A DNA stretch of 47,540 bases from Chiloscyllium plagiosum (taxonomy: Eukaryota), in NCBI RefSeq assembly GCF_004010195.1, contig NC_057719.1, positions 18,988,160 to 19,035,699 of the forward strand, in the 5' to 3' direction. The notes beneath the pieces were generated by a model. That model ran no database searches. It was not told the DNA's origin and saw only the letters and a program-made list of their open reading frames with translations. How positions within the stretch are numbered: the stretch's first letter is position 1; the number at the start of each line of letters is the position of its first letter. Position numbers and translations under genes: made by a program. This document shows positions 3,193-44,881 of this stretch, in pieces.

Positions 3193-3424
3193 GAATGTTT
3201 CCAACTCAATGATAATCCAGACTTTAGAGTACTTCATAATGCACATTGGCTCTCATTTTTATAACCAAGAGATACCACAGCCCTATGACAACCACTGTTC
3301 CAAATCCACAGTCTTCTAGATGTACCTCAGCTGAAAGCTGGGTCCAAGGTCTGGAATGCAAATGATTAAGCTATCACAGTAAAGCTATTTATTTAAAATC
3401 CAATGCAAGTAATGCCTTGGGAAA

Positions 3425-3585
3425 TGAAAACAAGAAATGATGGAAATACTCAGCAGATTAGGTAGCACTTGTGGAGAGACATAGAGTCAGCATTTCAGGG
3501 TGGTGACTTTTTAACAGAATCAGGCTTTATCAAGAGTCTATTGAAAGGTCATCAACCTGAAATATTAACCATGTATCTCTCTCAA
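3425..3585. mobile_element. Degenerate foldback PLE-derived element (family B)
   Basis: GAAATACTCAGCAGATTAGGTAGCACTTGTGGAGAGA followed by a partial inverted arm (AGGTCATCAACCTGAAATATTAAC...CTCTC). Homologous to 9204-9391 and 36055-36245. Confidence 0.55.
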
Positions 3586-8500: not shown

Positions 8501-9701
8501 TCCCCCTGGACCAAATGGCTAGTTGCTAAACTGTTAAATTTCAGACTGATCATAGCACCTTCCACTTTAGTTTGACCTTCCCCTCAGTTAGAAAGCAATG
8601 GAACTCTTTATCTGCCTGGATCTCCTCTTCCACCATTTTATGTTCAGATTTAACATAGAATCACAGTGCAGAAGAAGGCTATTTGGCTCGTCTTGTCTGC
8701 ACTCACTCACTGAATGAGCAATTATGTCTTATTGCCACTTGCCATAGCCATGCACATTCCTTCTATTTAAATGATTATCTAATGCCCACTTGAAGGCCTT
8801 GATTGAACAAGTCCCCACCACACTTCCAGGCAGTACATTCCAGAAGCAAATTATTAACTGCACGAGAAAGTGTTTCTCACATCACATTTCATTCTTATGT
8901 ATACTGTTTTATATCTCTGCCCACTTGTTCTTGAACAGTTTCTCCCTTTCAACTTTCTCAAGGCTTCTGGTGATTTGAAAACATTAATCAAATATTTTCT
9001 TAGCTATCTTCTCTCTGAGGCAAACAGTTCCAATTCTCCAATCATTCCTGAAAACTGAAGTGTTTCATCACTGGAACTATGCACCCAGAATTGTAAACTA
9101 TAGTGCAGTTCAATTCTAATTCATGTTTATACAGGTTCCACTCAACCTCTACGCCCCTGTCGTTTATGCCCCTATTAATAAAACCTAGAACATTTAATGC
9201 TTTAAAAAAAAAGAAACTGCTGGAGAAACTCAGCAGGTTTTGGCAGCATCTGTGGAGAGAAAGCAGAGCCAACATTTTGTGTCCAGTGATCTTTCTTCAG
9301 AAGTATTTTGTTTAATTCTGAAGAAGTGTCACTGGACATAAAGTGATAGCTGCTTTCTCTGCACAGATTCCTCCAGACCTGCTGAGTTTCTGGATGTAAG
9401 TTTGTTTGCTGAGCCAGAAGGTTCATTTTGTCATATACTAGGTAGCATCATCAGTGAGCCCCCGATGAAGCACTAGTATTAGTGACCCACTTTCTATTTA
9501 TGTGTTTAGGTTTCCTTCTGTTGGTGATGTGATTTAACATAGTGATGTCAGTTCTTGTGGTGATGTCATTTCCTGTTCTTTTTCTCACCACAGGAACTGA
9601 CACCAGCATGGGAAATGACATCAACAACCCAAGGAAACCTAAACACATAAAGAGAAAGTGAGTTACTAACACCAGTGCTTCACCGGAGGCTCACTGATGA
9701 T

Positions 9702-9931
9702 GATAGGCGGAAGGGAGGACTGCAGATGCTGGGGATTAGAGTCGAGAGTGTGGTGCTGGAAAAGCACAGCAGGTCAGGCAGCATCTGAAGAGCAGGAGTG
9801 TCGATGTTTCAGGCAAAAAACCTTCATCAGGAATGAGGGCTGGTGATTCCTGATGAAGGGCTTTTGCCCGAAATGTCGACACTCCTGCTCCTCGGATGCT
9901 GCCTGACCTGCTGTGCTTTTCCAGCGCCACT
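9702..9931. mobile_element. Foldback PLE-derived element family A with 12-bp TSD
   Basis: Inverted arms around a short spacer (~9835-9845); flanked by CTCACTGATGAT at 9690-9701 and 9932-9943. Confidence 0.88.
9846..9881 (+). ncRNA. Minimal hammerhead ribozyme motif (PLE type)
   Basis: CTGATGA 9850-9856, A, stem II GGGC-TTTT-GCCC 9858-9869, GAAA 9870-9873, TGTC 9874-9877 (CpG-decayed ACGT palindrome). Confidence 0.7.
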
Positions 9932-10835
9932 CTCACTGATGATATTACCTGGTATGGTGATGAAACGTATGAAAATGAACCTTCCAGCTCAGTGAGTAAA
10001 CTTACATCCAGAACCTCAACCTGAGCTACAAATCTTCTCAAAACTCATTGCTGAGTTTCTCCAGCAATTTCTGTTTTTGCTTGTTTAAGAACTCCAGCAT
10101 TCACAGCTCTGTTTTATCTTTCATTTTATCTTGTCTCTCCATATTATTTCTCCCAAAATCTATAGTTATCCACATTGAACTTCATCGGCCCCCTATCAGA
10201 ACAATCCACAAACATCCTCAATGCCCTTTTGAAGTTCTACATTGTTCTCCTCACAGTTTACAATATTTCCAAGTTTTGTGTCATTCCACATACTTTGTAT
10301 TTTCTCATCACTCCAAGATCTAAATGGATCATGGCTGATCATCTAATTCCTGTTTTCTCGTCATACCCTTTGATGCTTTTAGCCCTTAGAGTTATATCTA
10401 ACCTATTCTTGAAAATATTCAATTTTTTGGCTTCAACTGCTTTCTGTGGCAAAGTTCCATGGACTCACTACTCCATGGGTGAAGAAATAATAAATAATGA
10501 AAAGCTAGCATCCCCATACTAACACCTGGGGAACTCCATTGCTAACCTTCCGTCCTGGTAAATTATCTTGCCACAATCCCTTTTATTCTGTGAGCAATAG
10601 CTTTTGTCATTATTCCCACATTAATTGTTTCTTCCTCCTGTATCTCATACATTCTCTCTTTCTTTGAAATATTGTCCGTCTCCCGCATTGGCCTGGCATT
10701 GGTTCTTAGCTTTCATTCACAGTTTCAATATCCACTGTGAAAGCATTGGACTCTCATACTCAAGATACCACTCAAAGCAGCATTCCAGTCTAGATTCTGA
10801 AAATTGTAATAGTCTGTTGCCAGAAAACCTATTAT

Positions 10836-11154
10836 GGGCGGCACGGTGGCACAGTGATTAGCACTGCTGCCTCACAGCGCCAGAGACCCGGGTTCAATTC
10901 CCGACTCAGGCGACTGACTGTGTGGAGTTTGCACATTCTCCCCGTGTCTGCGTGGATTTCCTCCGGGTGCTCCGGTTTCCTCCCACAGTCCAAAGATGTG
11001 CAGGTCAGGTGAATTGGCCATACTAAATTGTCCGCAGTGTTAGGTAAAAAGGGGTACATGTAGGGGTATGGGTGGGTTGTGCTTCGGCGGGGCGGTGTGG
11101 ACTTGTTGGGCTGAAGGGCCTGTTTCCACACTGTAAGTAATCTAATCTAATCTA
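10836..11154 (+). mobile_element. HE1-type V-SINE, full length
   Basis: GGGCGGCACGGTGGCACAGTGATTAGC head, GGGTTCAATTCC B-box, V-domain, (TAATC)n tail. Confidence 0.93.
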
Positions 11155-11868
11155 TTTTAGAAAGTTTCTATAAAACATCTGTAAAGGAAAATAACTCCTG
11201 GAAAAAAGGAAATGCACACGCTACTCAATGTAGCCATTCCTGCCTGGTGCAAGTAATAAAATGGGAGCTTCAGGCACATGTAGCAAGTGTCATATTTTCA
11301 TATTATTTGAATGCAGTTTGCAGCCTATGATACTGAAGCACAGCACTGTAATAAATACTACTTCTTTGAGCCCAGGCACAGTCGTCATGGAGATTGTGTT
11401 TTCACCACACACGATATAGGATCAAACTCTTTCATGGTTAATGCGGATTTAAGGTGCTTGTCAGAAGTGCACTTGTATTGCTAGGTTAGCCATACTCTAG
11501 CTCTTACCATGACTAAGCAGTATTTGACTGCAGAAAAGGTCTGAATTGTGCAGTGATTCTCATGTCAGCACTTGCCTTGAACAGAAAATGGAGATGACAA
11601 ATCTTCAAACTGGATTCTTTCAATTGGTAAAAAGCATAAGATGGAAGACTGTGCATTTATGTAGTTTCCCATGACATTAAAAGCATTTCACATGCAATAA
11701 ATTGTTTACTTTCCTGTCGTAGTTGCTGTTACATTGGCAAATATTGTAGTGAAATTACACATAGCAAATTCGCCAAGACAGGAAACAAGATGAACCTGTT
11801 TCTGATGATGTTGGTTGATAAAGAAGACTTTATTTCCTGATGAAATGTGCCCAGCTAATCTATTGCAA

Positions 11869-12115
11869 AGGGCAGTTAAGAGTTATCCTCATTGCTGTAG
11901 GTCTGGAGTCACATTAGTAAGACAGATCTTCCTGAAAAAACAGTGAATCACGTGGAACTTTGCAACAAATAACAATCATCTACAGTAACCAATGCTGAGA
12001 ATTGCTTTTTAAATTCCACGCTTTATTAATTAAACTTAAATTGTTGTGGTGTGATTTGAATCCATCCCTTGAGAGTATTCTGCTAGGCATTTAGATTATG
12101 AATCCACTACCATCA
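11869..12115 (-). mobile_element. Degenerate SacSINE1-like SINE
   Basis: GGGCAGTTAAGAG...CATTGCTGTAGGTCTGGAGTCACAT is the reverse complement of the core at 2315-2340/3665-3715; GATTTGAATCC is a reversed B-box. Confidence 0.55.
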
Positions 12116-12845
12116 AGCCACTTTTGGCTAAAAGTTTGGGAGAACTAATAGCTTTATGAATGGCTCCATCAGGAGTTTTACATTATCCAATAAAACATCA
12201 CATAAGGTATCTCCTTTAAACTCAATCTTCTAATACGAAGAAGGGGATGAACTAGCTGATAGTTGTATAGCCAGGATTTAATACAAGGCCCATTTCCAGT
12301 GGCCCTGAAGGCCACAACTGAATTGCATGAGGCCGAGGTTGTAGTTACTGCTACCGTAAGGCACCACCAGCTAAACAGAGAGTTCTGACTCAGCGCCACT
12401 GCTAGGAATGGTGGCCAATTCTGGGACTGTACAGCTTCTAGACCAAGAGCACTGGACATCTGCATAAGGGTAAATTGGGAGGACTCACCAGTAGCTGCTT
12501 GACTGACCCCCGCAAGGGGCAATTGGGAGGTATTATCGAGAGACCACAGTCAAAATCTTCACACTGTGTGAGGGTGGGAGGTCCTCCAGGAGCACCAGCT
12601 TTCTGAAATGGAGGCCCCCATTCCAAACCTGCAGGCGGACAACCAAGTTATACCTGGCAGCATTGCAACGTGATGAGAGCTACCCCACTCCTGGTGAAAT
12701 AACACCAGAGACAGGCAAAGCTTCGCTTTGCCATTCTATCTAATAGGAGGCACAAAATGCTAGTCTACATGTGCATGAAGAGACTTGGGAATACTCCTGT
12801 GTGTTTTCCCGGATACTCACTCCCAGTTCCGTAAAACCATATGGC

Positions 12846-13310
12846 AAAGATCAGTAGTAGGCCTTTCAGTCCATCAAATCTGCTTCACCATTCAATGAGG
12901 TCGTGGCTGATCTGGTAATCCTCAATTTGAACTTCCTTGCCTTTTCGCCATAACCCTTAATTGCCTTAAAGCTTAAAAATCCATCTGTCTTAGCTTTGAC
13001 AATACGTAATGACCCAATCTCAACAGCCCTCTGCACTATCCTCTGAAGGAAGAAATCTTTCCTCATCTCTGTCTTAAATGGGTCTTTATGTCCTCTGTTC
13101 CTAGATTCTCCCTCAAGGGGAAACAACCTCTCCACATCAAGTACTCTAAGAAGTTTGTATGTTTCTTTAAGGTCACCGCTCATTCTCCTAGGTTCCAAGG
13201 AGTACAGGCCCAACCTCTCCTTCAAGAATATTCCCTCTATACTTGATATTGGCTAGTGAATGTCTCTTGAATGTCTCTAATGCCAAGATATCTTTCCTTA
13301 GATATGGTAC
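12846..13310 (-). mobile_element. CR1 LINE 3' fragment
   Basis: ORF 12866-13225: RLGLYSLEPRRMSGDLKETYKLLR...FKTEMRKDFF, the typical CR1 ORF2 C-terminus. Confidence 0.85.
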
Positions 13311-14496
13311 CCCTTATGAAATCTGCAACATCAGTGCCATCCAGTGTGTAACTGAGTGAGGGTTTTTTGAGATAGTCCACCGCTACTTCCTTTCTCTTAG
13401 CTCCATCATGGAGCTATCTAATGATTAGTTGTAGAGGATACATCACTGCAGAGTATCTACAGAGGAGGCCCTGTTCTTGGACAATGAGAAAGTTCATCGC
13501 TTGATAATAATAAGTGTAATAACATTTGGTCGGACATAGTTACTGGTACAAATACATCTGCCCCCTCTAAAACTTTCAGTTGAACTCCTTGCCTCCACCT
13601 ATAGCTTGTTTATGACAGTGTACCCAATGTAGTATAATCATTAACCCTTTCAGAACCGTTATCCTATGCATCATGTATTAGTGATATTCCCTAACCAGGG
13701 ATTCAATTTTTAAAGTCATTTGCGGGACATGGCTATTCCTGGCAGGTATATTGACCATTCCTTATCTCACATGTCAATTCAATTTTGATCCACCATTTTG
13801 AACCATTGTAGTCCATGCGGTGTAATTGAGCCTATAATGCTATACAGCAGTATGTAATTACCATTAAAAATCATTTGGAGTGTTTGCAAAAACATGATGC
13901 TTTTGAACAGCATAAAATAACAGTATAATGCTCACACTATCTAGCTTCCAGCAGCCTGATGAATAATTAGAAAGGATTTGTAGTGCTGCAAATGATTTAT
14001 GAGCTGCAGTGTTACTTTACTTAAAGGAAAGTTAACCTTAATTCTGAGTAAAATAAATGTTTATAAACATTAACAGAGACAATTGTAGGCTGCTGAAGGA
14101 CAATCACTTAGCCATAAATTGCCTAAAATGCTAAAGACTGCTTTGATTTGAGAAAATGGAACAGACGTTTTTGAAGATGCATCACAATTCACACCAGTCT
14201 CAACCTCGTCAATATTTGGTTGGCTTGGCATAGCACAGAAACAGACAAAACTTCACCATGGTGGCCAGCACAGAAATGTGGCTTATCTAAGAAAGTCAGG
14301 GAAATGTTCAACAGGTCTAGCTGCATGTAATGGAGAGCGAAACAGAGTTAACGTTTCAAGCAATGACCTTATATCAGATTCTCAGGCCCCAAATGATTTG
14401 GGCAATGCTGAAAAATCTGGGAGAATCAGGTTAGAATTCAGCTGAGGCCTTTCTTGATGTCAGGATCAACAAATGACATTTTTCAACAGCATCTGT

Positions 14497-14810
14497 GGGC
14501 GGCATGGTAGCACAGTGGTTAGCACTGCTGCCTCACAGCGCCAGAGACCTGGGTTCAGTTCCCGCCTCAGGCGACTGACTGTGTGGAGTTTGCACGTTCT
14601 CCCCATGTCTGCGTGGGTTTCCTCCAGGTACTCCGGTTTCCTCCCACAGTCCAAAGATGCAGGTCAGGTGAATTGGCCATGCTAAATTGCCCGTAGTGTT
14701 AGGTATGGGGTAAATGTAGGGGTATGGGTGGGTTGCGCTTCGGCGGGTCGGTGTGGACTTGTTGGGCCGAAGGGCCTGTTTCCACACTGTAATGTAATCT
14801 AATAATCTAA
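14497..14810 (+). mobile_element. HE1-type V-SINE, full length
   Basis: Same head, V-domain and tail as 10836-11154. Confidence 0.93.
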
Positions 14811-15109
14811 TAACAAGATTCTCACGAGTAAGCAGTGAGAGGTCTATTAATGAGGATTATCAGTCTTTTCTCACCTTCATTAATGTGCACTGTCCTATTC
14901 CATCACTCCCTAGATCGATACTAGACGATGAGAATTCTTGACTTGAATATCTGAACAGTACCTGGGAACACATCTCACCAGTTGCTCCTCCGCATTGTCA
15001 TCTTATTCACCCAGCAGCAACATCTGAGGGCACTTTGCATGGGAATCAGCTGATTATACCACATATCCATGGATGCTGGAACCTGACATATTCCAGCCTC
15101 ATCACAACA

Positions 15110-15328
15110 GCATGGCTGTGACTCATTTACAGATTCAATCAATAAGCACATTGACCTGGACCCAATATACCGACCACTGCAGCGGACAGCTGGAACTGAC
15201 AACCGGAAGCGGCAGATTCAAACCACTATAAATGCCAGAGGAAAGATCACAGAAGCGCTTCACAGGAGGCTCCCAAGCACTGAGGATGTCACCTAGACAG
15301 CGGACGAAATGTCTGCAACACAAATTCT
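15110..15328 (+). mobile_element. PLE 3' end (Poseidon-type endonuclease C-terminus) with hammerhead
   Basis: Encodes DSINKHIDLDPIYRPLQRT. Followed by GCA-CTGAGGA-T-GTC...GAC-GAAA-TGTC-TGC (15277-15316), where GCA/TGC forms stem I. GCTTCAC.GGAGGCTC context is shared with family D. Clade assignment from recollection. Confidence 0.7.
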
Positions 15329-15356
15329 AAAGGGAGTAGTTCTCAGCCAAGTAAAG

Positions 15357-15617
15357 GGTGGCACATTGTGGCTCAGTGGTTAGCACTGCTGTCTCCCAGC
15401 AACAGGGACCCAGGTTTGATTCCAGCCTCGGGTGACTGCCTGTGCACATTCTCCCTGTGTCTGTATGGGTTTCCTCCCACAGATCTGCAGGTTAAATGGA
15501 TTGGCCAGACTAAATTGCCCATAGTGTGCAGGCTAGATGGATTAGCTATGAGGATCTGGGTGGGTTGCTCTTCGGAGGGGTGGTGTGGACTTGACGCTTT
15601 CACACTCTAGAATTCTA
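15357..15617 (+). mobile_element. Older, internally deleted HE1-type SINE
   Basis: GTGGCTCAGTGGTTAGCACTGCTG head, partial V-domain, GGTGTGGACTTG tail. Confidence 0.8.
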
Positions 15618-15864
15618 GGATACCCTTCACTCAGAAGCTTCCAGCACAGTAAGCCAAGGGCACCTCTGATAGCTTATGCCCAATCATTCGGCTGCTTGGG
15701 ACAGTCGGGATCAGGACCATATCCTTGGAGGGGTGAGTGGTGTTTGTGGTGTTGGGGGAATGGGTAACAGCAAGTGAGGGAACATGTTGCACACAAGTGA
15801 CAGTATTGGAGCGTTTGCTTCAGTAGATGGCATGTGATGAAGTAGAGGAAAGATGGAGTCACTA

Positions 15865-16070
15865 ACCCTAATGCAGCAGGAAAGGTCATTGACCTTCTTA
15901 CAATACTGCTTGGCATTCCTCTAGATAGATGAGGTTGCAATGAGCAGGCTGGCATGTTCTGAAACTGTGCTCTCCTTTGCTGCTGCTTTGGGAAGAGAAT
16001 GTTTATCCTCTGCAATAGCCCATCCATCAGAACCTACAGCTTCGTGTCCCCAAAGTATGACGTGAATTCC
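15865..16070 (-). mobile_element. Degenerate Myb/SANT-like ORF of a PIF/Harbinger transposon
   Basis: Minus strand F.D.KL*VLMDGLLQRINILFP...QNMPA, then after a frameshift RNAKQYCKKVNDL and a GTTAGT donor-like site. This matches the Myb/SANT-like DNA-binding pattern of Harbinger accessory proteins. Confidence 0.55.
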
Positions 16071-17000
16071 CTCTAATCCTTTGTGTCATGAACCGTACAG
16101 GGCAACTCCAGACTGACAGTGCTTGACCTGATGCATCAATGAACATTTAAAGATGGCATCCAGTGCCAGGTGTCCTTTGGTAGTGAGTACCCCGACTGTG
16201 GCAACTAGGAGAGTCAGGTTAACATCAGATGAGATGGGCACGATCAATCGTTGATGAGGTGAGTTTGTGACTATAGCAAAAGGAGATCATGAGAGAAAAC
16301 CTCCATGATACTCACTGAAATGACACTTTGCCTGACTATGATAATATTCAGTCCTTCATCTTTGATTTTGTTGAAAGTTTGTTGATATGGCAGATTCTTT
16401 TTTCAGAACATCCTGCTGGACGCAAGGAGCAATGATTGACTGGAAACAGCCTGATTGGCTGGCATCTCTGAAGTCCCAGCAGCACCATTGGCAGCAGTGG
16501 CCAAAACTAGGACTCCAAGCAGACCTCCAATTCCAACTGTCAGACTCCAAGAGCAGGTTAAGTGCCAGAGGATCTCACAGTGGAAGGTGGAGGTGAATCC
16601 TAGAAGTCTGCGAAGGGAGAAAGGAATAGTGAGTCTTAATGGAGAGGAGGCAGAGGGCTCAGGAAGTGAAAGGTGGTGTCATGACTTTGAGGCAGAGAAA
16701 ACCAACAGTGGCACTGATCTCATGGAGATGAATCTGATGGGATCCCCCAATTTCCATCTGAGGTCTGGACAAGCTGAGAGGCTGGGCTTTCCTCTATCCT
16801 TAACCTCCCTCTTTCAGCCTCATAATTGAAAGTGAAAGTTTGAATAAGCGATTAAAGTTATGAAGCATTTTTACATAACAAGGGTCATAGAATTTGTAAC
16901 TGTTTTCCACAAACAGTAGTGGATGCAGGTCAGTTAATTTTAAATCTGAGGTACGTTTTTTTCATTAAGCAAAGTGAAGGATTTGGGCCAAATGCAGGCA

Positions 17001-17443
17001 CAGAGTCATAGAGTCATAAAGATGTACAGCATGGAAACAGACCCTTCGGTTCAACCCGTCCATGTGACCAGATATCCCAACCCAATCTAGTCCCACCTGC
17101 CAGCACCCGGCCCATATCCCTCCAAACCCTTCCTATTCATATACCCATCCAAATGTCTTTTAAATGTTGCAATTGTACCAGCCTCCACCACTTCCTCTAG
17201 CAGCTCATTCCATACACGTACCACCCTCTGTGTGAAAAAGTTGCCCCTTAGGTCTCTATTATATCTTTCCCCTCTCACCCTAAACCTATGCCCTCTAGTT
17301 CTGGACTCCCCGACCCCAGGGAAAAGACTTTGCCTATTTATCCTATCCATGCCCCTTATAATTTTGTAAACGTCTATAAGGTCACCCCTCAGCCTCTGAC
17401 GCTCCAGGGAAAACAGCCCCAGCCTGTTCAGCCTCTCCCTATA
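17001..17443 (-). mobile_element. HER1-type CR1 LINE 3' fragment inserted in an older CR1 tail (~16860-17535, +)
   Basis: ORF 17087-17473: YRERLNRLGLFSLERQRLRGDLIDVYKI...VWNELLEEVVEAGTIATFKRHLD; (CTATGACT)n tail. Confidence 0.92.
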
Positions 17444-18548
17444 GCATATGAAGTTAGGCCACTGATCAGCCACGATTTCATTGAATGTTGGACCAGGCTC
17501 CAGGGGCTAGATGGCCGACTTATGTTCCTCTAAGAGCAGGAAGGAAGCAGTCCTGTGTGGGCAATAATGAAGGCAAGGGTAGGTAAGCAGGTCTAGGCCT
17601 CACCCTAGGTAATACTGCAGACAGTTCAGCGTGAATGGGCAGCAGAATGTAAAACTCTGCCCACTCTCTGTTTCTCAGCCTGTCCTGACCAGCATTTTCT
17701 GTTTATTATTTCAGAGTTGCAGCATCGGCACTATTTTGTTTTTGCATATTTTATCTGGAGTTCATCTTGTGAGTCTGGAGTGGACTATTTGTGGCACTAA
17801 ACAATGAGCAGTCAATGGATTCACATGACAGATCTCTGCTTTCGTATGTTGTGTTATCTTAATACAAGCATTGGTCCATTTATTTTAAATGGGTTAACAC
17901 AGCCTCTAAGATAGCAGACAGAGGAATGTCAACAGCTACTTCTAAATGGTAGAGATTTGAATCACGTTCTGACAACAATAGAGCTCCTGTCAAAACTAAA
18001 AGTAAAGCTTGTGGTAATCTACTAGTAATCTTTCCCCCACGTAGAAAACACATCTGTGTAAAAGACTGCTCACTTTTTCATGCTCACATTTGTTTGTTCT
18101 ACCATTGACCTTGTACTCATTCCAAATAAGGCCAAGAGAGGCTGGAGGCAGAGGCACTGAGTCCTAGCCCAGGCATTGTTCTAACCCAATTAGAAAAGGT
18201 AGCAGAGAGATTGCTATTAGCTGCAATACCCTTAGCATTCCTGTACCAGTAGTGTTGGGGTCTATTAGGAGATCCATTCCTGAAATGTGGCATGGAATTC
18301 TTAAGATTCCAGTGAATTCGATAGATTTTGTAACCACTTTAGAAATTGACCCGGGGCGGGGAGGTGGTGAGGGGTGGGGTGGGGCGGGGGAGGGGGGTAG
18401 TGGTGGGAGGGAGCTGAGTGGAAACAGTATTATGATGCTACTGAAAGCACTCTGACACTTCCACATCTCCCCATATTGAATGTTTGAGGGCCAATTCTCC
18501 CCTTTTACTGTTTTAAAATCATTAATTAAAAAAAACAAAATTGATGCA

Positions 18549-18729
18549 TGATTTGGAGGTACGAGTGTCGGACTGGGGTGGACAAAGTTAAAAATCGCAC
18601 AGCACCAGCTTATGGTCCAACAGGGTTATTTGGAAGTATTAGCCTTTAGAGCGCTGCTCCTTCATCAGGTAGCTTGCTGGTACTTCCATCTAAACCTTTT
18701 GGACTATAACCTGGTGTTGTGTGATTTTT
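18549..18729. mobile_element. Foldback PLE-derived element family C with ~12-bp TSD
   Basis: Full minus arm including CTGATGAAGGAGCAGCGCTC; truncated plus arm ending GTGATTTTT; flanks AAAATTGATGCA (18537-18548) and AAAATTAATGCA (18730-18741). Confidence 0.75.
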
Positions 18730-18907
18730 AAAATTAATGCAAACAGCTCCAAAGGTCTCTGTAGCAAAAAATCAAAACAGAAAAAGGAATTTGTTGAAGT
18801 TAAATTGAACGATCAATTTTGAGGGGGGTGGTGTGTGTGTGTGTAATGATGCAACCCAGCGCCCCACCCCCCCCACAATTCTCATCGATTGCTGAAGGTC
18901 TGAAATG

Positions 18908-19745
18908 GTAGGTAAAAACAAGGACTGCAGATGCTGGAAACCAGATTCTAGATTAGAGTGGTACTTGAAAAGCACAGCAGGTCAGGCAGCCACCCCTCCA
19001 ACCGTAAGAAGGACAGAACCTCCCTGGTGCTCACCTTCCACCCTACCAACTTTCACAAAAACCACATTTCCCCCACCTCCAAACGGAGCCCACCACCAGG
19101 GATATATTTCCCTCCACACTCCTTTCTGCCTTCTGCAAAGACCATTCCCTCCATAACTACCTGGTCAGGTCCACCCCCCCCCCCCCCCAACAACCCACCC
19201 TCCCATCCTGGCACCCTCCCCTGCCATCGCAGGAATTGCAAACCCTGCGTCCACACCTCCACCCTCACCACCATCCAAAGCCCCAAAGGAGCCTTCCACA
19301 TCCATCAAAGTTTTACCTGCACATCCACCAATATCATTTATTGTATCCGTTGCTCCCGATGCNNNNNNNGAGCCAGGGGGAGGGGGGAAGGTGGAGAGAT
19401 AAGTGGGAGGGGGGTGGGGCGGGGGGGAAGTAGCTGAGAGGGTGATAGTTGGATGGAGGTGGGGTTGATGGTGATAGATCAGAGGGGAGGGTGGGGTGGG
19501 AAGGACGATGGACAGGTAGGACAGGTCAAGAGGGTGGTGCTGACTTGGAGGGTTGGATCTGGGATGAGATGAGAGGAGGGGAGATGAAGAAACTGGTGGA
19601 GTCGTAGCTAGATGCAGGAGGGGGCGTGATGGTATGTAGCTGCAGATCCAGTTTCCTCATCTCCCCTCCTCCTACCTCACCCCAGATCGACTCTCCTGCT
19701 CCTTGGATGCTGCCTAACCTGCTGTGCTTTTTCAGCCTCACACTT
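18908..19745. mobile_element. Rearranged Neptune-type PLE: inverted family A ends, Cys linker/GIY-YIG fragment on +, assembly gap 19363-19369
   Basis: PGTLPCHRRNCKPCVHT...FHIHQSFTCTSTNIIYCIRCSRC up to the N-run. Family A tail on - at 18908-18990 and on + at 19686-19745. Confidence 0.8.
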
Positions 19746-20817
19746 TTCCATCTTGTCCAAGCCCAGGAGCAGGCCCATGAGTGATCTTCCCTCGGCTTGT
19801 TCTCCCACCTCTCCACAAGGTGCCCAAAGATCAGGAGCGTGGTGTTGAAGGTGCAAAAATTTAGAACTGGTCCTTTTCAAGTAAAATAAAGGGACTGGAA
19901 ACTTTTACAATTTCTGTATGTATGATCCATGGATTCCTTGAAGCTGCAAAAATCTAGGGCAGCCTGGGAGTCTTAACTTGTGGACTGCTGCACCTTTCAG
20001 ACCAAGTGCCTGATTGTAAAAGGGAAGACTCCTGTGGAGCTAGTCCTTCGCTAAAGGAGTTCAATACCACAGGAAGACAAGGAGGGACACTTGTCTCAAA
20101 GACAGACAAACATAAGGAAGTGAAGGATGTACAGCATCAGGCAATACAGGAAACCTCCCCCCCACCCATCCACTCTCCACCCAGAAAGAAGCAGAAGGAA
20201 TGTTCCCAAGATGGCACAAATAGTTTGGCTTTCGAGGTTCTACTCCAATGTGAAATTCTATCTAAATTGGAATCAGACAGATGGATATACATATCACAAG
20301 CAGCTTCAGGATCAAGTGCCATTGTTTTGACACTTGGGTGGCTTTGGCCAAGAGCTGGCCACCAAGTAACCCGCAGCTAGTGAGTTTCTCTGGCAGAGTC
20401 TACCCCATTCTCCAGCATCAAGCACATGCCCAGTGTCTGGTCAATCTGACCAGTCTCTTCTGCCAGACATCCATATTTCCGCTGGAGGTGCGGATTCCTG
20501 AGCAGTGATTTAATTAACTAACTGACAGCCGTCAGTCTGATGGGAGACAGCTCTGGGGTGAGGCCACCATGGCCAAATGTTAATCATGTCCTCGTAAAAG
20601 ATGGACAAGAGATACAAAGATCAGAGCGAACAGCGGACTGGAGGTTCATGTCATTGTTGAAGCTGTGCACTTGGCAGAAGAAGTAGGCCACCAGACCGCA
20701 CCATCTAGGAGGTAGCTTGATATAATGGTATCGCTACTGGTTCTGAAGCTGGAAGCACCCTATCTAGTCACAAGACAACCCACGGTCTGATTGCCCTCCC
20801 TAAGTAAGAAGGTTAGA

Positions 20818-20940
20818 ACAGTCCAAAGATGTGCAGGTCAGGTGAATTGGCCATGCTAAATTGCCCGTAGTGTTAGGTAGTCGGTGTGGACTTGTTGGGC
20901 CGAAGGGCCTGTTTCCACACTGTAAGTAATCTAATCTAAT
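20818..20940 (+). mobile_element. 5'-truncated, internally deleted HE1-type SINE
   Basis: ACAGTCCAAAGATGTGCAGGTCAGG...GTGTTAGGTA joined directly to GTCGGTGTGGACTTG...TAATCTAATCTAAT. Confidence 0.88.
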
Positions 20941-21516
20941 TTGCAGAGACTCAGTGCTGCCTTTTGTCCCAGAGGAAATCCGTAGCTCTCCCCTATAATG
21001 TTTTGACAAAACTATGGGGGAGGTGATTTAATTAACTAACTAATGCTGCAAAATTGCAATGGTCAGTTACTTCATGATCAAAGATTGACACCAATAGGAC
21101 AGCACTTAAAGCAGTCTGGTCCAGTGCCCAGGGTGAGTGGTAACTTTAGCCTCCAGCTCCTGACAGTTCACCTTCCAGGATTTCTCGGCAGGAATAAAGT
21201 AGACTCCCAAATACAGGAGACAGGTGGTGTTCCTGGTGAATTACTTGAGCTCTGCTGGTGGAAAGTTCACACGCCACTGATGGACAAGGAATTGGGACCA
21301 AATTCCCAGTTATTCTCGACAGAGGACACTGTAGTGTGTAGGTCTTGGTGCTCTCACATCCTCCACAGGTCAGCTGGCACCATGAACATGAGGAGTATAC
21401 CATCATCCAAAAACTCTTGTCTTGCGCAGAGCCAACCCTTACAAACCCATCCACAAGAGGCTCAGGAATAGCTCCATGCAAATTGAATGTAACTGGTCAG
21501 GTAAAGGGTGGCAAAA

Positions 21517-22138
21517 TCTGGATTAGTAGTGCTGGAAGAGCACAGCAGTTCAGGCAGCATCCAAGGAGCAGCGAAATCGACGTTTCGGGCAAAAGTCCTT
21601 AATCAGGAATAAAGGCAGAGAGCCTGAAGCATGGAGAGATATGCTAGAGGAGGGTGGGGGTGGGGAGAAAGTAGCATAGAGGGGATGAGTGGGAGAGGGG
21701 ATGAAGGTGATAGGTCAGGGAGGAGAGGGTGGAGTGAATAGGTGGAAAAGGAGATAGGCAGGTAGGACAAGTCCGGACAAGTCATGGGGACAGTGCTGAG
21801 CTAGAAGTTTGGAACTAGGGTGAGGTGGGGGAAGGGGAAATGAGGAAACTGTCGGAGGTGTTCCCTAAAGCGCTCTGCTAGGAGGGGCCCAGTCTCCCCA
21901 ATGTAGAGGAGACCGTATTGGGACCAACGGATATAATAAATGATATTAGTGGATGTGCAGGTAAAACTTTGATGGATGTGGAAGGCTCCTTTAGGGCCTT
22001 GGATAGAGGTGAGGGAGGAGGTGTGGGCGCAGGTTTTACAGTTCCTGCGGTGGCAGGGGAAGGTGCCAGAATCGGAGGGTGGGTTGTAGGGGGGCGTGGA
22101 CCTGACCAGGTAGTCGCGGAGGGAACGGTCTTTGCGGA
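21517..22138 (-). mobile_element. Neptune-type PLE 3' part: Cys-rich linker + GIY-YIG endonuclease fragment + family A tail with hammerhead
   Basis: GTFPCHRRNCKTCAH...FTCTSTNIIYYIRWSQYGLLYIGETGPLLAERFREHLR; tail CTGATTAAGGACTTTTGCCCGAAACGTC at ~21579-21606. Confidence 0.9.
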
Positions 22139-36698: not shown

Positions 36699-38731
36699 TC
36701 TCTCCCCTGTTTTGTCTGCGTGTCTCTGTGCTGCTGTTGCCCTTTGAAGGGCTTTACATCATTTAAAAGAGAAGCTCCCCCCTACCCTCCTCACAGAACA
36801 TAAGATGCACCCTGCCCACACTGAGTGTGGTGGCAGCCATCTCCATCCCCATTCTATGCGTGTTATTTACAACACAATAGAAGGCAACAGCGGCCATTCC
36901 TCACGTGGTGCATCTCAGGGCTTAGTTTCTTACTCTTGGTGAATCACCGCATGTACACCTTCCCTTCTTGCTGGTCCTTCCTGTCAACTCCATTAGCTTT
37001 AAACTTTCCCACAATCCCACCCAACCCATCCGTTTAAATCTTCATCTCTCCACTTAGCCCCTCCCCAGCCCAGACATATTGAATCAACATCCAGAAATGA
37101 GAGTGCACTGCTCCCCCACCCCTGGACCTATCAAAATCAGGATGTCGCTGTCGATGAGCACCCTCAACATATTACCCTTTACCTGCAATACTCTATCATC
37201 CTCTCCCCTTCGATACTGAGTTGCTCACTTTACAATTTTTATTCCCTCTGTGTCCCAGGTTCCAAGCCCCATAATTAAGTAGTCTTTTGTCTATCCTACA
37301 GCAGTGGCCTCTAATGATCCTCCATTGGGTTGTCGTGGATCTAGCCCCAAGGCTGACCATGGTTCACTCTCTCGAGTCACTTAGACAGACAGCCTGAATA
37401 ATGAGTTACCAAAACCTGACTGATATTCTTGCAGCACCCTGACTGACTTCCCATGACCCCCTGGGCTGTTAGACTAGACCCAAAGTGGGGGACCTGGAGA
37501 CTATAGGGGTACAATTCTCCTGACTGTGACCTCCCCAAGTGCTTGGCTTCCCATGACAAAAGCATGTGAAATGTATTTGTCATATATGTGACAGGCACAC
37601 GATGCAGATGTAGGATTAATGTAACATGGTGCCATACAGCAAAATGTCCACTCCCCTGACTGATGACTGTGTGCAACCATGACAGGCTGACTGGCTTTGC
37701 GTCTGTGCTAAAAGGCAAGTCAAGTTAATAGCACTGTGAGTCATAACTTCTGTTTGGGGGGGAAAATTGCAAAATGGCAAGACAAGGTAAGGATGCTGTG
37801 AGATTCAAGTTGGCACAGTGATTCAGCATTAAGAAAGCAATTGAGCTGTCCTTAGATAATCCCTGGTGCAATCCACGAGCTGAGCTCATAACTCTGCATG
37901 CAAAGTTTCCTGACAGCACAATTGCTGTGAGATGTCCTCCTGCTCCGAAGTGGAGCACTGAAGTGTTGTACCAAACGGAAAGAGGTTTGGAAATGTGCCA
38001 GGATGATGCAGTCAAAGTGGTACATGTTGGATGCTAATGTACATAGTTTGAGGATATACACAGTCTCTGCCCATGGAGTGTACTCTGAGATGATGATGCC
38101 TGTATCCAAGATGGAGATCCAGAGGAGCGGACAGTAAGCTGGAGTCATCAAGTAATTGCTTCATGCCGAGAATTGTCATGGTCTAGTTTCTACCTGACTG
38201 GAAGGAGGATGCAAACTGAGGTGAGATTTGGTGATTATGCAATCTTGATGCATGCAAATAGGCTTCTCACTGCTCACTAACAAGAATGTCATCTCACCAT
38301 TCAATACTTGGTTGAAACATTGGACATATTGCTCTCAGTGTCAAGAAGTTCCATCATGGACTTCTCACACAATTTCCCCAACTTTCTTGCCGTGGTTTGT
38401 GTCAATCAGGGGATGGGAAGTTTTCAGTCTACATACTCAGCTTTCTTTGATCTGGTGTTTTCCGTTCAATCACACTGTGCTTTGTAAGACTGCTGCAATC
38501 ACTTTTAGGAGTTTCCTCATTGCCCATTATTATGAAAGGTAGCTTTGCACTCATGATAATTATGTGGATATGGCAATAGAGGACCAGAGTGCTGCTGCTG
38601 GCTGGAGCTTCTTATGCTAAATGTACCCTTTGTTCTCCTTCTGCAAAACAATGAAATTGTTCTGGTACTCTGTTCATGACCCTGTTAATTATAGTCAGAT
38701 CCAATGTTATTCCGGCTTGAGAACCAGATGG

Positions 38732-39220
38732 TCTCCACTTACTAGGATGGGTGCAGCTCCAATAACACTCAAGAAGCTTGATACCATCCAGGACAAAGCA
38801 GCCTGCTTAATTGGCAGCACATTCACAAGCATCCACTCCCTCCATCACTGACACTCAGTAACAGCAGTGCACCAACTACAAGATGTATGCAAAAATTCTC
38901 AAAGATCAACACCTTACAAACCAATGGCCAGCAGCATCTATTAGGACAAGGGCAGCAGATTCATGGTAACACCACCACCTGCAAATTCTACTCCAAATCA
39001 CTCACATCCTTTCTTGGAAATATATCATTCCCCCATTCACTGTCACTAGGTCAAATTCCTGGAAATCCCTGCTTAACAGTATTGTAACTTTACCTATAGC
39101 TCATGGACTGCAGGGGTTCAAAAAAGCAGCTCACCACCCCCTTCTCATGGGCAGGTAGAGATGGGCAATAAATGTTGGCCCAGCCAATGATGCCCACATC
39201 CAACAACTGAATTTTAAAAA
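38732..39220 (+). mobile_element. L2/CR1-group LINE 3' fragment whose tail is shared with the SacSINE1-like SINEs
   Basis: SPLTRMGAAPITLKKLDTIQDKAACLIGSTFTSIHSLHH; tail GATGGGCAATAAATGTTGGCCCAGCCAATGATGCCCACATCC. Confidence 0.8.
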
Positions 39221-39357
39221 GCTCTGAGAGATAGTCATCTCACCACGTCAATCCCATTCAATCTGCAGCTGTTGAGCACTCTCAATCTTTCCAGTGATCT
39301 GAACGCTATTGTATCTCTAGGCACCAATAAGGAAGTGGAAAATGTTCTTCCTTCATC

Positions 39358-39488
39358 ACCACAACCACCTGATGAAGGAGCAGCGCTCCAAAAGCTAGTG
39401 CTTTCAATTAAACCTGTTGGACTATAACCTGGTGATGTGTGATTTTTAACTTTGAACACCCCAGTCCAACACCGGCATCTCCAAATCA
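39358..39488 (+). mobile_element. Single-arm PLE-derived element family C with 10-bp TSD and hammerhead
   Basis: CAC-CTGATGA-A-GGAGC-AGC-GCTCC-AAAA-GCTA-GTG (GAAA decayed to AAAA); TTCCTTCATC at 39348-39357 and 39489-39498. Confidence 0.82.
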
Positions 39489-41732
39489 TTCCTTCATCTC
39501 ATTCTTCAACACTGCTTTTTGAAATTTGCGTCCCAAAGCCTAAATCAACCCAACATATCCAAGCACTCTCAGAGTCTTAAATGGTCTTCAGACAAAGTTA
39601 TTGCTCCTGTTCTTCCAGTTGCATGGGTCATGGAATAAGATGGTGTTATATAAGTAACATTGGAGAGTTGTTGCAGTACATCCTGCACTGGAGCCATAAC
39701 TGTGAAAAAGGTGACTATTAACTCCAGTGTCAGAGGCAGTAATCAAGCAAATTGTTTTGAGTACTGTCAATCATTCTGAGTTTAGTAGTGGTTTCACCTC
39801 TCCAATAAATGGAGTGCATACAGTCCCGAAATGGGTTTTGCTCATAATGACAAGACTTTAATTAAGTTAGGGAGTATTTGTCACAAAGTACTAAACTTCT
39901 CTAAATATGTGTGATCTGGTTTGTCTTCTAGTCAAGAGTGATGCCAGGCCAGGTAGTGTCTGCCACTTATGTAGCTTGAATGTATTTGTCAGAGTTGAAC
40001 TTGATGGTATCTGAGTCCTGTTTATAAACTGGGGCATGTCAGGTAACAAGTTACATTATCACCTTATTAAAGTTGTCTCAAGTACCATCGAGGCATTTGT
40101 AGATTGCACCTGCTTTAGTGAGAAACGGAAAGCAGCACATCATGAATAGGGTAATATTAGACTTAGTTCATTCTGATTGGACTTAACTGTGTTTTTGAAT
40201 GGTTGCAATGGATCAAACCATTAAAGTAATCATTTACTGTGTCACTTTCTATTCATGGCAATCATGTTAATTTTGCAGAGATAAATAGACTTTTTTCCAA
40301 TTTTTCCGCAGTTATTAATTTTGTTTTTGCTGCAACGATTAAGTGTTAGTTTCACTAATGCAAGTACTCTCATTGCAGTGAATATAATTTACATTTCACC
40401 ATTGTAATTATTTTTACTTTGCCTATAGTGAACTCTCATTATAATTCATCGCAGTGATCATCATTTTAATTTCACTGCACTGAATTAGAACGAACGTTGC
40501 TTGGCAGTGAGATTACCATTCACTCCTGAAGATTAACATGAGGGTGTGAACAATAAACTTGGATTGCTTTTACCTTCCCATCAAAAATATTTACTTATCA
40601 GATATTTGTGTGACGGGAATTGACGGGCATTTGATTTTGAGTCAAAAAAGCTTTTGAGTTAAATTATGATTAATGATGATCTGATCCAAAGTTCAATGAG
40701 TTTTTCTTTTGATTGGGTAAAGGCTGCTTGAAAACTCAACAGAAAAAGCTTGTATCTATGGCCTGATTGAGACTTGAAGATTAAACCCCAACTGTGTGAC
40801 ATAATGCAGCTGTTGCATTTTGGGGGAAGATCTTCAGCTTGAATGCACCTTTGTCCCACTTTTGACACCACCAAAAAATGGCCATCTGACAGGCAGCGGC
40901 AGACTCGGGTCAGGGAACAGGTGCTGAGAAAGGTCACATTTTAATCGCCAGCCACGATACTTCACTCCGTCATTCCAAACAGCTGACAAACAAAAGGGCT
41001 GGTAATAGTGACTGACAGGATTCTTAATTGTATGCAGTCAGTCATGACAATTTGATTAAAATATTACGAAAAAGTCTCGCCCCCTGTTTGTTTCGATCCT
41101 CGAAATCTAATTTTAAATTTTCAAAAGGAGATTAACTTCACAAGCATGACTTGGATGCCATTAACTTCTACTTAATCTTTATTACTGATGAGAATTTAAC
41201 ATATGTATGGGTTTGTCTCGGTGCTTCTGGCTCTCTGAAGTAATGTCTAGAAAATACAAATGGTGGACCCTAATTTGCAATTAAAGTGATAGTATCCTGT
41301 TTTATTGCTCGACTAAACTGTCTGCATTTATAAAACATTTAAACAAGAAAATAAAACCAAGCCTTTGATAAACAAAGCAGGTATCTTATTATTTATTAGC
41401 GATCAATGAATACATGTTTTTTTTTCCCCTGAAATTTGTGTACATTATTCGGGAGGCCCTGTCTGTCTCTGTTTATGACAGAGTCAGGGTTACCAAGCAG
41501 AGACTTGTTTTTAATATTCGTTCATCGGATTTCGGTATCACTGGCTAGGGAATTTAAAACACGACCACATTGCAATGGCTCTGGGTCACATGTTGGTCAA
41601 ACCAGTCAAGGATGGTAGTTTCTTTCCCTAAAGGATGTTAGACAAAATCACAAATATCAAACTTCCAACACATGCATTTACATAATATCTTCTGGCAAAA
41701 TGTCCAAACTGTTATGTACTGGAAATAACTTT

Positions 41733-42024
41733 GGGGCGGCACAGTGCCTCAGTGGTTAGCACTGCTGCCTCACAGCACCAGGGCCACAGATTCGGTTCCA
41801 GCGTCTGGCGACTGTCTGTGTGGAGTTTGCACATTCTCCCTATGTCTGCATGGGTTTCCTCCGTGTGCTCCGGTTTCCTCCCACAGTCCAAAGATGTGCA
41901 GGTCAGGTGAATTGGCCATGCTAAATTGCCCATAGTGTTACTTGCATTAGTCAGAGGGTTGGTATGAACTGGTTGGGCCGAAGGGCCTGTTTCCACACTG
42001 TAGGGAATCTAATCTAATCTAATC
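41733..42024 (+). mobile_element. HE1-type V-SINE
   Basis: GGGGCGGCACAGTGCCTCAGTGGTTAGC head, V-domain, (TAATC)n tail. Confidence 0.9.
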
Positions 42025-42224
42025 TTCTGAAGTAAACAAAATGTGCTTATGTCAGCAATCTGCCATTTTGCACCAACAATGGTAAACAGTACCTCATATA
42101 CAATAACAAGATTAACAGCCCTTTGGTCTACTCTGTTGTGGGTACTGACTGAGGGAGGTATGTTGGCCAAAATAACAAGAAAACTTCCTGAAGTGGTACT
42201 GTGGGGTTTTAAGCATCCACAAAA

Positions 42225-42385
42225 CATAAAACAAAAACAGAAATTGCTAGAGAAACTCAGCACAGTTCTGATGAAGAGTCACCAGACTTTAAACTTTCAC
42301 TTCCAGATGCTGCCAGACCTGCTGAGTTTCTCCAACAATTTCTGTTATTGTTTCAGAACTCCAGCATTCACACCTTTGTTTTATT
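42225..42385. mobile_element. Foldback PLE-derived element family B (deleted)
   Basis: AAACAGAAATTGCTAGAGAAACTCAGCA / TGCTGAGTTTCTCCAACAATTTCTGTT inverted ends, with CTGATGAAGAGTCACCAGACTT between them. Confidence 0.75.
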
Positions 42386-42544
42386 TCACAGAATGTGAAA
42401 CAGTTTAACATCTCATCCATTTCAACTATCAAGCTAACTTACTTAAATTGCTTTGAACTATACTTATGCATTGTTTAGCTTTTTTTAAAAAAAGATGTCT
42501 TTATAACATTGATTTTCTCAGTAATAGAAAATATAGTATTTCTC

Positions 42545-42825
42545 TGAGGAGTACGTTTAAACTTTGTGACGAGGTGGAATTTCTTCTGTGAAAGGATTGT
42601 GAGTCTCTGGAACACCTTGCAGCAGAGAGCTGGCAGGGCAGAGTCCTTCTGTAAATTTAAGACTGAAATAAATAGACTTTTGATCAGTTTGGGAACTGAG
42701 AGTTACAGGGAAAGGGCAGAAAAGTGGGCATATGGAATGTCAGATAAATCATGATCTTATCAAATGGCAGTGCAGACTCAAGGAGCTGAATGGCTTATTC
42801 TAGCCTCTTTTTTTTGTGGTCTTAA
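42545..42825 (+). mobile_element. Old CR1 3' fragment
   Basis: NFFCERIVSLWNTLQQRAGRAES..KFKTEINRLL. Confidence 0.75.
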
Positions 42826-43831
42826 CATAAACAACCTATAATGGAATGGCAGCCTGTTTTACGTTTCCCCCAATAAATGGAACAGATGGGAAGCCACTTA
42901 TGGAAATCAGATGCCAAAGAATGTTTGGTAGCATTCCTCTGTAGTAGATAATCAAAAAGAGGAAGATGATCTGCTAAATCATGACAAAGGCTGCGGAGGA
43001 TTCAAAGATGAAGAGGAAGAAAATACAACAAAGACACCACAGAGAAATTCAATGAAGAGCTTAATGGTTGCCATTTCAGTGCTGTGGCAAGAGCAAGACC
43101 TGATTAAAGAGATTCGAACCCAGCATTCTGGAAAGAAAAGGCACAGATCTGGTAGCTTTGGAGAAGCATGGGATTTTGGAAATGGAATGGCAATCAGAAA
43201 GAATAGAGGAATCAATGTTTTTTCACTAATTGAATATTTCACACCCTTGCAAAAGTAAGGTGGACTAGTACCCAAGGAGAAAGAACTATGTAGCATTGCA
43301 AACAGAATGGGAGCTTTTGGTATCAGCAGTTTAGTGGCAGTAAGGTCAAGGGTTGAGGGGATGGGTCTCATTGATATGATGATGCACCAGGAAGGCATGA
43401 AAGGACATAAGAGAAGAAGTGGAGAAAATTCCCTTCATAAAGGAAGGAAGCACAGGAGCAGAAATGTCAATTTAATGTGATGCTTCTCATTGAAGATGTT
43501 GGGGTTGTGGTGGTTGTTTGCAATGTATTGTGGTGAGGTGGGCAAGGTTGAAGATCTTAAGGATGCATTTGAAGAGTTGAATAGTTGTGATAATAGGTTC
43601 AGAAGTAGGTGATAATAGGAACTGTGCTAAAAGCAACCCATGTCATAACAGGACTGGGTGTGGAGTGTGTGAAAAATATAGAAGGATGGAATCACACTTG
43701 GAAGTCATTGAATTTGATGTTGAGTTTTAGAGTCTGCAGGGTGCCCAGGTGGAAAATAAGATGCTGTTCTTTGACCTTGCACTGAGGCTCACTGGAAAAC
43801 TGCAGCAAGCCTGAGACAGAAATATTGCCAT

Positions 43832-44057
43832 GAAGTGGAAGTGCTAGTGTTGGAATGGGGTGGACAAAGTTAAAAATCGCACAACACCAGGTTATAGTCC
43901 AGCAGATCTGTTTGGAAGCACGAGCTTTCGGAGTGCTGCTCCTTCATCAGGTGGTTTACCATTCCCTCATCAGAAACCTGATGAAGGAGCAGCGTTCCGA
44001 TAGCTAGTACTTCCAAATGAACCTGCTGGACTATAACCTGGTGCTGTGCAATTTTCA
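43832..44057. mobile_element. Foldback PLE-derived element family C with two opposed hammerheads
   Basis: Inverted arms ~43872-43952 / 43976-44055; possible TSD ACAGAAATATT (43816-43826) / ACAGAAATGTT (44058-44068). Confidence 0.85.
43919..43953 (-). ncRNA. Minimal type I hammerhead ribozyme with all core nucleotides intact
   Basis: Minus strand CAC-CTGATGA-A-GGAG-CAGCA-CTCC-GAAA-GCTC-GTG: stem I CAC/GTG, stem II GGAG/CTCC, palindromic AGCT stem III, CUC cleavage triplet. Confidence 0.8.
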
Positions 44058-44881
44058 ACAGAAATGTTAAGTGGCAGGCAACCAGAAGCTCCGGGTCATT
44101 TTTGCCGGCAGAAAATAGAAGTTCTGAAAAGTGGTCAACCAATCTGCATTTCATTTTCCCAGTGTCGAAGAGACCACATTGTGAATAGTGAATACAGTGG
44201 ACCAGATTGAATAAAGTGCAGGTAAATCATTGCTCCACCTGAAAGATAAGTCTGAGCTGTTGGTTGGTGGAGGGGGAGGAGGTAAACAACAAGTTTACAG
44301 ATTCTGCAATTCGATTTACGTTGGTTCACAACCACATTGGCAAAGTTCTACAATGGTTTTCCATTGCCTTCTGCAGTGTGGCTGGCCAGGAAACTTTGCT
44401 ATTATTTGCTATCTGCCATTATTTAAGGTGTGGACCAGATCAACTATGATTTTGTTGAATAGCAAAACAGGCTTGGGGAGCTGAATGGTCTACTTCTGCA
44501 CCCTTATTTTTTTCTTGTGAAGTATATTGGAAGGATTTACAAGCCAATAATCAATATATTCAGCCATGTTATGAATGCACCTTCCTTGGCCATCAATTTC
44601 TGAAGTATGACTCAAATACAGGATTTAAAAAGGAGAAAGACAGACAAAGGCAGAGATCCCCTGGTCAAAGAAAGAAAGCATCACTGCTGTCTGACACAGC
44701 AGTGAATCTGCACAATTATTACTTTTGCTGTTTGAGTTCAAGCATCTCTGGATATTGGAGTGCGTCTAAAAAAAATTAACAAACAGCAAAATTCACAGCT
44801 GACTTTGGAGGAACCTATGTGGGAGAACTCAAAGCATAGGAGAAGCTAAATGCATGGTTTTTAAGTGTAACCTTGCTGTAA

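Follow-up and report, generated by a model that had tools for sequence, protein, structure and literature searches.

What are the short fold-back sequences with hammerhead ribozyme motifs that lie in a 47,540-nt stretch of the shark Chiloscyllium plagiosum genome (NC_057719.1, positions 18,988,160 to 19,035,699; the whole stretch is referred to as the window), and how did they come to be there? The window is vertebrate non-coding DNA that holds many pieces of long and short interspersed nuclear elements (LINEs and SINEs), and pieces of Penelope-like elements (PLEs) make up about 9% of it (4440 of 47540 bases, in 16 intervals). An original prediction, made from the sequence without database searches, had named nine fold-backs in four families (A1 to A3, B1 to B3, C1, C2 and D). 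These nine and an older one at 3421-3583 were examined, and counts refer to the window alone unless a sequencing run is named. The fold-backs are probably the smallest form of an ordinary endonuclease-positive (EN+) PLE insertion, in which two 3' ends of the element are set head to head anew at each site.

All nine predicted fold-backs are real, each being recovered as a local inverted pair when the window is compared with itself (E 1e-7 to 1e-62), and the folding energy of A2 (-129.3 kcal/mol, z -18.3) is equalled by none of 200 shuffled sequences. The inserts are 160-430 bp long and have no open reading frame (ORF) between the arms. In eight of the nine named copies a terminal tail (33-47 nt in the five measured) is present on one arm only and the partner ends at the tail boundary; the exception is B2, in which the inverted arm stops after about 45 nt. 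The predicted combination of one complete arm with a truncated inverted copy is borne out as regards the asymmetry of the arms, but the truncation is non-random, since the outer end of the inverted arm is a fixed tail boundary, which is a known PLE feature. Solo arms show either outer end, tail-less at 3057, 21517 and 26713 and with a tail at 18915, 35240, 39488 and 17745, so the tail-less end arises without a hairpin.

Target site duplications (TSDs) flank five of the fold-backs, in every case at the element for which they had been predicted: D (12/12 matching positions), A1 (12/12), A2 (15/15), A3 (15/16) and C1 (11/12), with lengths of 12, 12, 12, 15 and 16 bp across the five. In a control of 600 random pairs of positions at equal tolerance, two pairs scored 9 or more and none scored 11 or more; the TSDs of D, A1, A2 and A3 lie above all 600 pairs, and that of C1 (11/12) is reached by 2 of 600. 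The expectation of long TSDs was not sustained for the rest, as C2 has a flanking repeat of just 8 bp, which 10 of 600 random pairs equal, and the flanks of B1, B2 and B3 show repeats no better than chance against 600 random position pairs. TSDs of about 8 bp or more and of variable length are present at five of the nine named fold-backs and at one solo arm.

The centres of all ten fold-backs are distinct, with none common to the copies of family A (three), B (four) or C (two). The arms overlap briefly in A2 and B3, join directly in A1, are separated by a few bases in C1 and by spacers of roughly 10-21 nt elsewhere; the spacers of A3 and C2 repeat neighbouring bases, and the inverted arm of B3 and of C1 begins 30-60 nt downstream of the start of the tail arm. 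Among the six A arms, three informative columns outside CpG sites (two events) cluster the arms by copy, while of four CpG columns one clusters by copy and three by arm type, one of these three being present in all three A tail arms. Mismatches between A arms in about 85 nt number 9-11 within a copy and 8-17 between copies, and the insertions are therefore old. Distinct centres together with non-CpG variants that follow the copy indicate that the hairpins in the window form at insertion and do not replicate as units, which upholds the prediction of independent formation at each site.

As had been predicted, the A arm runs on without a break into part of a GIY-YIG gene (21517-22138). The GIY-YIG match itself (Pfam E 0.006) falls, when taken alone, under the Pfam cut-off; the peptide is 87% identical over 94 amino acids to a Chiloscyllium punctatum protein with reverse transcriptase (RT) and GIY-YIG matches, and the part of the peptide beyond the deletion near 21851 is likewise matched by the end of that homologue. 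The Cys-rich linker that precedes the GIY-YIG domain in family A is presumably Neptune-type. The four families are not all mutually dissimilar as first thought, because blastn detects homology between A and B (E 1e-5 to 1e-9) and the profile of each retrieves the arms of the other. The C and D arms match their own family only, and reversed-window controls for the family profile searches gave no matches. PLE origin, which had been proposed for the whole set, can be read from the sequence for A through its gene fragment and is probable for B through homology to A; for C and D it is suggested by architecture alone. No long family-C copy lies inside the window. The upstream region of D (9454-9579, minus strand) can be read as an open frame of 42 codons that terminates inside the hammerhead core, and it is possibly the end of a PLE reading frame; a homologue search with the 42 residues, itself a weak search, gave no match. 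At the locus of the long A fragment, a contig from a second species (run X10) at 21380-21539 extends from flanking sequence into the PLE end by 23 bases, which suggests that the insertion at 21517 is older than the split of the two species. The loose ends of mapped contigs at 21529-21530 show at least two subfamilies of the family-A end besides the one at this locus.

Minimal hammerhead cores stand at the head of arms in all four families. Scans for them had been proposed with Rfam models or a motif descriptor: the Rfam search of the window returned no hammerhead at E<=1, seven of its eight matches being sub-threshold microRNA (miRNA) families, but a strict minimal-hammerhead descriptor was passed by four arms (9850+, 9936+, 26623+ and 43950-; two of A, one of C and one of D) and gave no hits in 60 order-2 Markov sequences. 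Stem I is 2-3 bp in these four intact motifs, which makes them minimal and not canonical type I hammerheads. The hammerheads of the B arms are degenerate yet alignable, and most copies have decayed, chiefly at CpG. Paired cores are often just 1-30 bp apart. The predicted position near the centre does not apply to D, whose hammerheads lie about 120-130 nt from its centre. The motifs resemble the minimal hammerheads of metazoan PLEs described by Cervera and De la Pena 2014 (PMC4209133) in the core, in a base that bulges out ahead of stem II, in the shortness of stem I and in the palindromic stem III region. As in that study, pairing is preserved although stem I, stem II and the four-base palindrome that follows the second core box vary from family to family.

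The less ordinary feature of the arms is that their inner ends cluster at the front of the hammerhead, as if RT ran off the 5' end of the RNA. Among 25 arms with a core (A 9, B 10, C 4, D 2), 21 end no more than 20 nt upstream of it, most of them at -2 to -6; the two D arms (about -130) and the A arms at 3057 (-45) and 21517 (-530) reach further up, and four more arms begin downstream of the core. Upstream of -4 the B arms are no more alike than background (pairwise identity 0.23-0.29), and the A and C arms are at background (0.24-0.31) upstream of -10; the inner ends of B and C are set by the loss of mutual identity and without a long reference. The tail arm of A1 extends 15 nt upstream, into sequence like a subfamily consensus among the mapped contigs. 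Furthermore, 38,811 and 48,412 contigs of two DNA runs map on the 21517-22138 fragment. Their summed depth, which is not equal to copy number, is 1.0e7 and 7.7e6 at the end and about 1.3-1.4e6 as soon as the hammerhead has been passed, a five- to eightfold drop, and 293 contigs per DNA run turn loose at -4 among the loose ends listed.

The fold-back architecture has already been published, and these well-formed examples are mostly explained by known PLE behaviour. Arkhipova 2013 (PMC3846280) describes inverted pseudo-long terminal repeats (pLTRs), mostly head to head, with a tail on one side and TSDs of 8-10 bp; Craig 2021 (PMC8557442) reports the same layout of inverted pLTR plus tail and treats the origin of PLE inverted repeats and tails as an open question. 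The fold-backs share with these EN+ insertions the inverted terminal copy set head-to-head, a 30-40 bp tail on one end, heavy 5' truncation and the occurrence of solo pLTRs, and differ from them in having no ORF between the arms, inserts of only 160-430 bp and TSDs of 12-16 rather than 8-10 bp. The clustering of inner ends at the hammerhead front has no counterpart in the available text of these two papers. Cervera and De la Pena 2014 (PMC4209133) found opposite-strand motif pairs 100-700 bp apart as well as many single motifs, which they took to be truncated PLEs; the accessible text of that study gives no insertion anatomy, whereas TSDs, tails and breakpoints are given here and the paired cores are often much closer. 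A literature search that left most subscription journals, supplements and Repbase/Dfam outside its reach did not turn up a study of 5' ends that gather at the hammerhead, nor one of short shark PLE hairpins.

The fold-backs work like EN+ PLE insertion, and for family A belong to it. If they are its smallest form, the GIY-YIG/RT protein would nick the two strands 10-16 nt apart, which would give rise to the TSD, and both free 3' ends would prime reverse transcription on element RNA, the outer start site yielding the tail-bearing arm and the inner start site the tail-less arm. The cDNA would pass through the uncleaved hammerhead and usually halt a few bases upstream of its core, where the RNA most likely begins; reverse transcription primed within the transcript's 5' terminal repeat would accordingly produce a short run-off copy. 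End joining would then unite the two cDNAs head to head, with a short overlap or a spacer peculiar to the copy at the join. Several of these steps would carry over from in vitro work on another PLE, Poseidon of Anolis, whose protein cleaves the two strands and extends each of them, initiates reverse transcription at two sites that bracket the tail, uses uncleaved RNA as template and primes without homology to the target (Frangieh 2024, PMC11167929). The likeness extends to the positions, as two start sites, one on either side of the tail and some 110-140 nt downstream of the hammerhead, would also account for the arms here; in contrast to Poseidon, family A has a Cys-rich linker before GIY-YIG and two of five target sites show some homology. 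The presence of the whole hammerhead in the arms is in line with an uncleaved template. From the anatomy, TSDs, tail asymmetry, unique centres and clustered inner ends observed here, and the link of A to a PLE gene, we infer that both ends are primed in one event, that the RNA starts at the front edge of the hammerhead and that the products are end-joined.

An alternative that departs from this reading in the source of the RNA alone, and leaves the hairpin step unchanged, is that the template is a short self-propagating unit: a tail-bearing solo arm of 125-135 nt with an internal promoter just before the hammerhead, copied in trans by the PLE protein in the manner of a SINE, with hairpins as by-products. 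This is unlikely, even though the 5' boundary is sharp, the depth of the end modules is far above that of internal parts and the B and C copies in the window never extend upstream; an internal promoter is known in D. virilis Penelope (Schostak 2008), as are non-autonomous PLE derivatives (MRC1; Craig 2021, PMC8557442). However, run-off on full-length RNA would yield an identical boundary, long family-A copies with the same end exist (21517-22138 and 3057-3193) and the upstream extension of the A1 tail arm enters consensus-like sequence. Less probable again is snap-back self-priming, which has been proposed for head-to-head PLE palindromes (Arkhipova 2013, PMC3846280) and in which one cDNA would fold at its 3' end and copy itself, the copy being cut or halted at the tail boundary. 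It would explain the orientation, the variants common to the arms of one copy and the local duplications in the A3 and C2 spacers, but not the tail-less ends of solo arms that lack a fold-back or the late start of the inverted arm in B3 and C1; at D and A2, moreover, the target past the tail-less end resembles the continuation of the element, as expected if a DNA end had primed there.

That the whole hairpin replicates as a non-autonomous unit, whether retrozyme-like or like a miniature inverted-repeat transposable element (MITE), is highly improbable. Overall length and layout are alike across families and three CpG columns cluster by arm type, yet no centre is common within A, B or C, the termini are asymmetric, TSDs range from 12 to 16 bp and the RNA of such a unit would presumably be one long duplex that sequesters both hammerheads. 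The original prediction had looked to many copies with identical breakpoint and spacer as the mark of a transposing unit, and among the few copies in the window there are none. A MITE in the strict sense can be rejected, given that one end bears an unpaired tail instead of symmetric inverted repeats and that the five TSDs are neither short nor fixed in length. Non-long-terminal-repeat retrozymes are built of 150-450 bp units repeated head to tail, carry canonical hammerheads and give circular RNA (Cervera and De la Pena 2020, PMC7229834; Li et al. 2026, bioRxiv 10.64898/2026.07.22.740005). The fold-backs are like them in being non-coding, in their type I hammerhead, in their relation to pLTRs and in TSDs of more than 4 bp, but they are head-to-head pairs with minimal hammerheads, and none of the six tandem arrays found by a tandem-repeat search of the window is made of hammerhead units. 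The description as retrozyme-like is for these reasons withdrawn.

Several points weigh against the interpretation as minimal PLE insertions made anew at each site. The anatomy is drawn from few copies (ten fold-backs), four of the nine named copies are missing a long TSD, and neither C nor D is linked to a PLE gene. The three CpG columns that follow arm type would also be expected of a replicating hairpin, though CpG decay explains them. Both D arms and two A arms pass the hammerhead by 45-530 nt, and the boundary is therefore not obligatory; the loose-end peak at -4 is confounded with subfamily divergence that starts there, the consensus being similar to the upstream bases of A1. Among the joints listed (15 of 72) there is one on opposite strands. 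The boundary before the hammerhead has what we take to be an initiator-like look, and it argues weakly for an RNA start at that point.

Meanwhile, the target beyond the tail-less end agrees with the continuation of the element at 9 of 11 bases for D and 8 of 11 for A2, two of the five TSD-defined sites. The resemblance was first spotted by eye at D and A2 and tested afterwards, and for the five sites this post hoc comparison gives a Fisher p of 1.4e-4, or 9e-4 under a GC-matched null and 0.013 without the first two bases. Seven other tail-less arms, whose ends are set by loss of homology and one of whose references is mis-anchored, show no such resemblance (p 0.86-0.89), and all twelve together give p values of 0.03 and 0.17. 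Pairing of the target with the tail start is a lead, not a result.

Taken jointly, these features allow a tentative and rather doubtful extension of the model. The shark PLE transcript might start about 4 nt before the core, and RT might usually prime internally on the 5' repeat and run off to give a 'strong-stop-like' cDNA of fixed length. Both ends of the staggered cut might do so, the second aided by pairing between overhang and tail start, in which case target choice would be partly RNA-guided; the 130-nt arm, with its own start and both priming sites, might then spread as a mini-retroposon. If this were true, the many stubs in the genome would be a step-by-step record of the PLE reaction. 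Since the window has many PLE pieces with clean TSDs, simple counts across the genome could by themselves put two-end priming, RNA run-off and target pairing to the test. There is also a risk that annotation takes PLE hairpins for MITEs or miRNA precursors. Scans of viral and metagenome contigs with a sequence pattern gave no matches; 118 loci obtained with a shorter pattern were rejected as chance (GC 61%, none matching the arms over more than 27 nt).

Table. Fold-backs, solo arms and longer fragments in the window; strand signs give the sense strand of each arm or piece
Feature	Position	Structure	TSD or remark
B1 fold-back, interrupted by D	9204..10117	tail-less arm 9204-9305 (-), 11-nt spacer, tail-bearing arm 9315-9391 + 10061-10117 (+)	no clear TSD
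D fold-back in B1, interrupted by A1	9392..10048	tail-less arm 9392-9563 (-), 21-nt centre, tail-bearing arm 9585-9701 + 9944-10048 (+)	arms reach about 130 nt upstream of hammerhead
D TSD, 12 bp	9380..9391 (+)	left copy 9380-9391, right copy 10049-10060	on - strand agrees with D's own tail start at 9/11 bases
A1 fold-back inside D's hammerhead core	9702..9931	tail-bearing arm 9702-9845 (-), tail-less arm 9846-9931 (+); hammerhead cores 9830 (-), 9850 (+)	12 bp, 9690-9701 / 9932-9943
C1 fold-back	18549..18729	tail-bearing arm 18549-18672 (-), short tail-less arm 18676-18729 (+) beginning downstream of core	18537-18548 / 18730-18741 (11/12)
A2 fold-back	34763..34976	tail-less arm 34763-34850 (-), short overlap instead of spacer, tail-bearing arm 34849-34976 (+)	15 bp, 34748-34762 / 34977-34991
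B2 fold-back	36055..36250	tail-bearing arm 36055-36188 (-), 12-nt spacer, inverted arm 36201-36245 (+) broken off early	no TSD
A3 fold-back	36487..36698	tail-less arm 36487-36563 (-), spacer with local duplication, tail-bearing arm 36576-36698 (+)	36471-36486 / 36699-36714 (15/16)
B3 fold-back	42229..42385	short tail-less arm from 42229 (-) without hammerhead, tail-bearing arm 42264-42385 (+), 3-nt overlap at join	no clear TSD
C2 fold-back	43832..44059	tail-bearing arm 43832-43956 (-), about 18-nt spacer with local duplication, tail-less arm 43975-44059 (+)	flanking repeat of 8 bp only
Older B-type fold-back	3421..3583	both arms begin at front edge of hammerhead	absent from original prediction
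Solo family-A arm	3057..3193 (-)	tail-less	reaches about 45 nt upstream of core
Degenerate solo B-type arm	14290..14381 (-)	begins at front edge of hammerhead	
Degenerate solo B-type arm	17624..17745 (+)	tail present	
Solo family-A arm	26605..26713 (+)	tail-less; intact minimal hammerhead, core at 26623	
Solo B-type arm	35240..35368 (-)	tail present; begins at front edge of hammerhead	
Solo family-C arm	39358..39488 (+)	tail present	10 bp, 39348-39357 / 39489-39498
Composite family-A insertion	18915..19747	tail-bearing end (-), inverted GIY-YIG region (+), 7 N, 3' non-coding stretch (-), small hairpin, tail-less end (+) beginning at hammerhead cut site	spans assembly gap
Long family-A PLE fragment	21517..22138 (-)	tail-less end 21517; core of hammerhead at 21606; then non-coding 3' stretch, internal deletion close to 21851, and Cys-rich linker followed by the start of the GIY-YIG domain (21852-22133)	

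The three-fold nesting at 9204-10117, of which the original prediction makes no mention, places A1 in the hammerhead core of D and D in the tail-bearing arm of B1, and PLE ends may be favoured targets for one another. The TSD of A1 duplicates the first hammerhead core box of D, since A1 landed in that core. The composite insertion at 18915-19747 changes direction at least three times and contains a 7-N gap, and the piece that begins at the hammerhead cut site starts at 19686.

Inverted and duplicated sequences of other kinds also occur in the window. A large near-perfect inverted repeat at 1246-1969, with arms of 206 nt at 100% and 94 nt at 99% identity lying 111 nt apart at the centre, is unrelated to the PLE arms and stems from recent inverted duplication, from a different element or from faulty assembly. 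A pair of 273-nt sequences (26855-27127 and 30135-30407), 100% identical and 3280 nt apart, is either a recent duplication or an assembly artefact. The fold-back at 5441-5811 consists of two 3' ends of the LINE that is common in the window, which has a short tandem repeat at its end, and suggests that inverted insertions here extend beyond PLEs.

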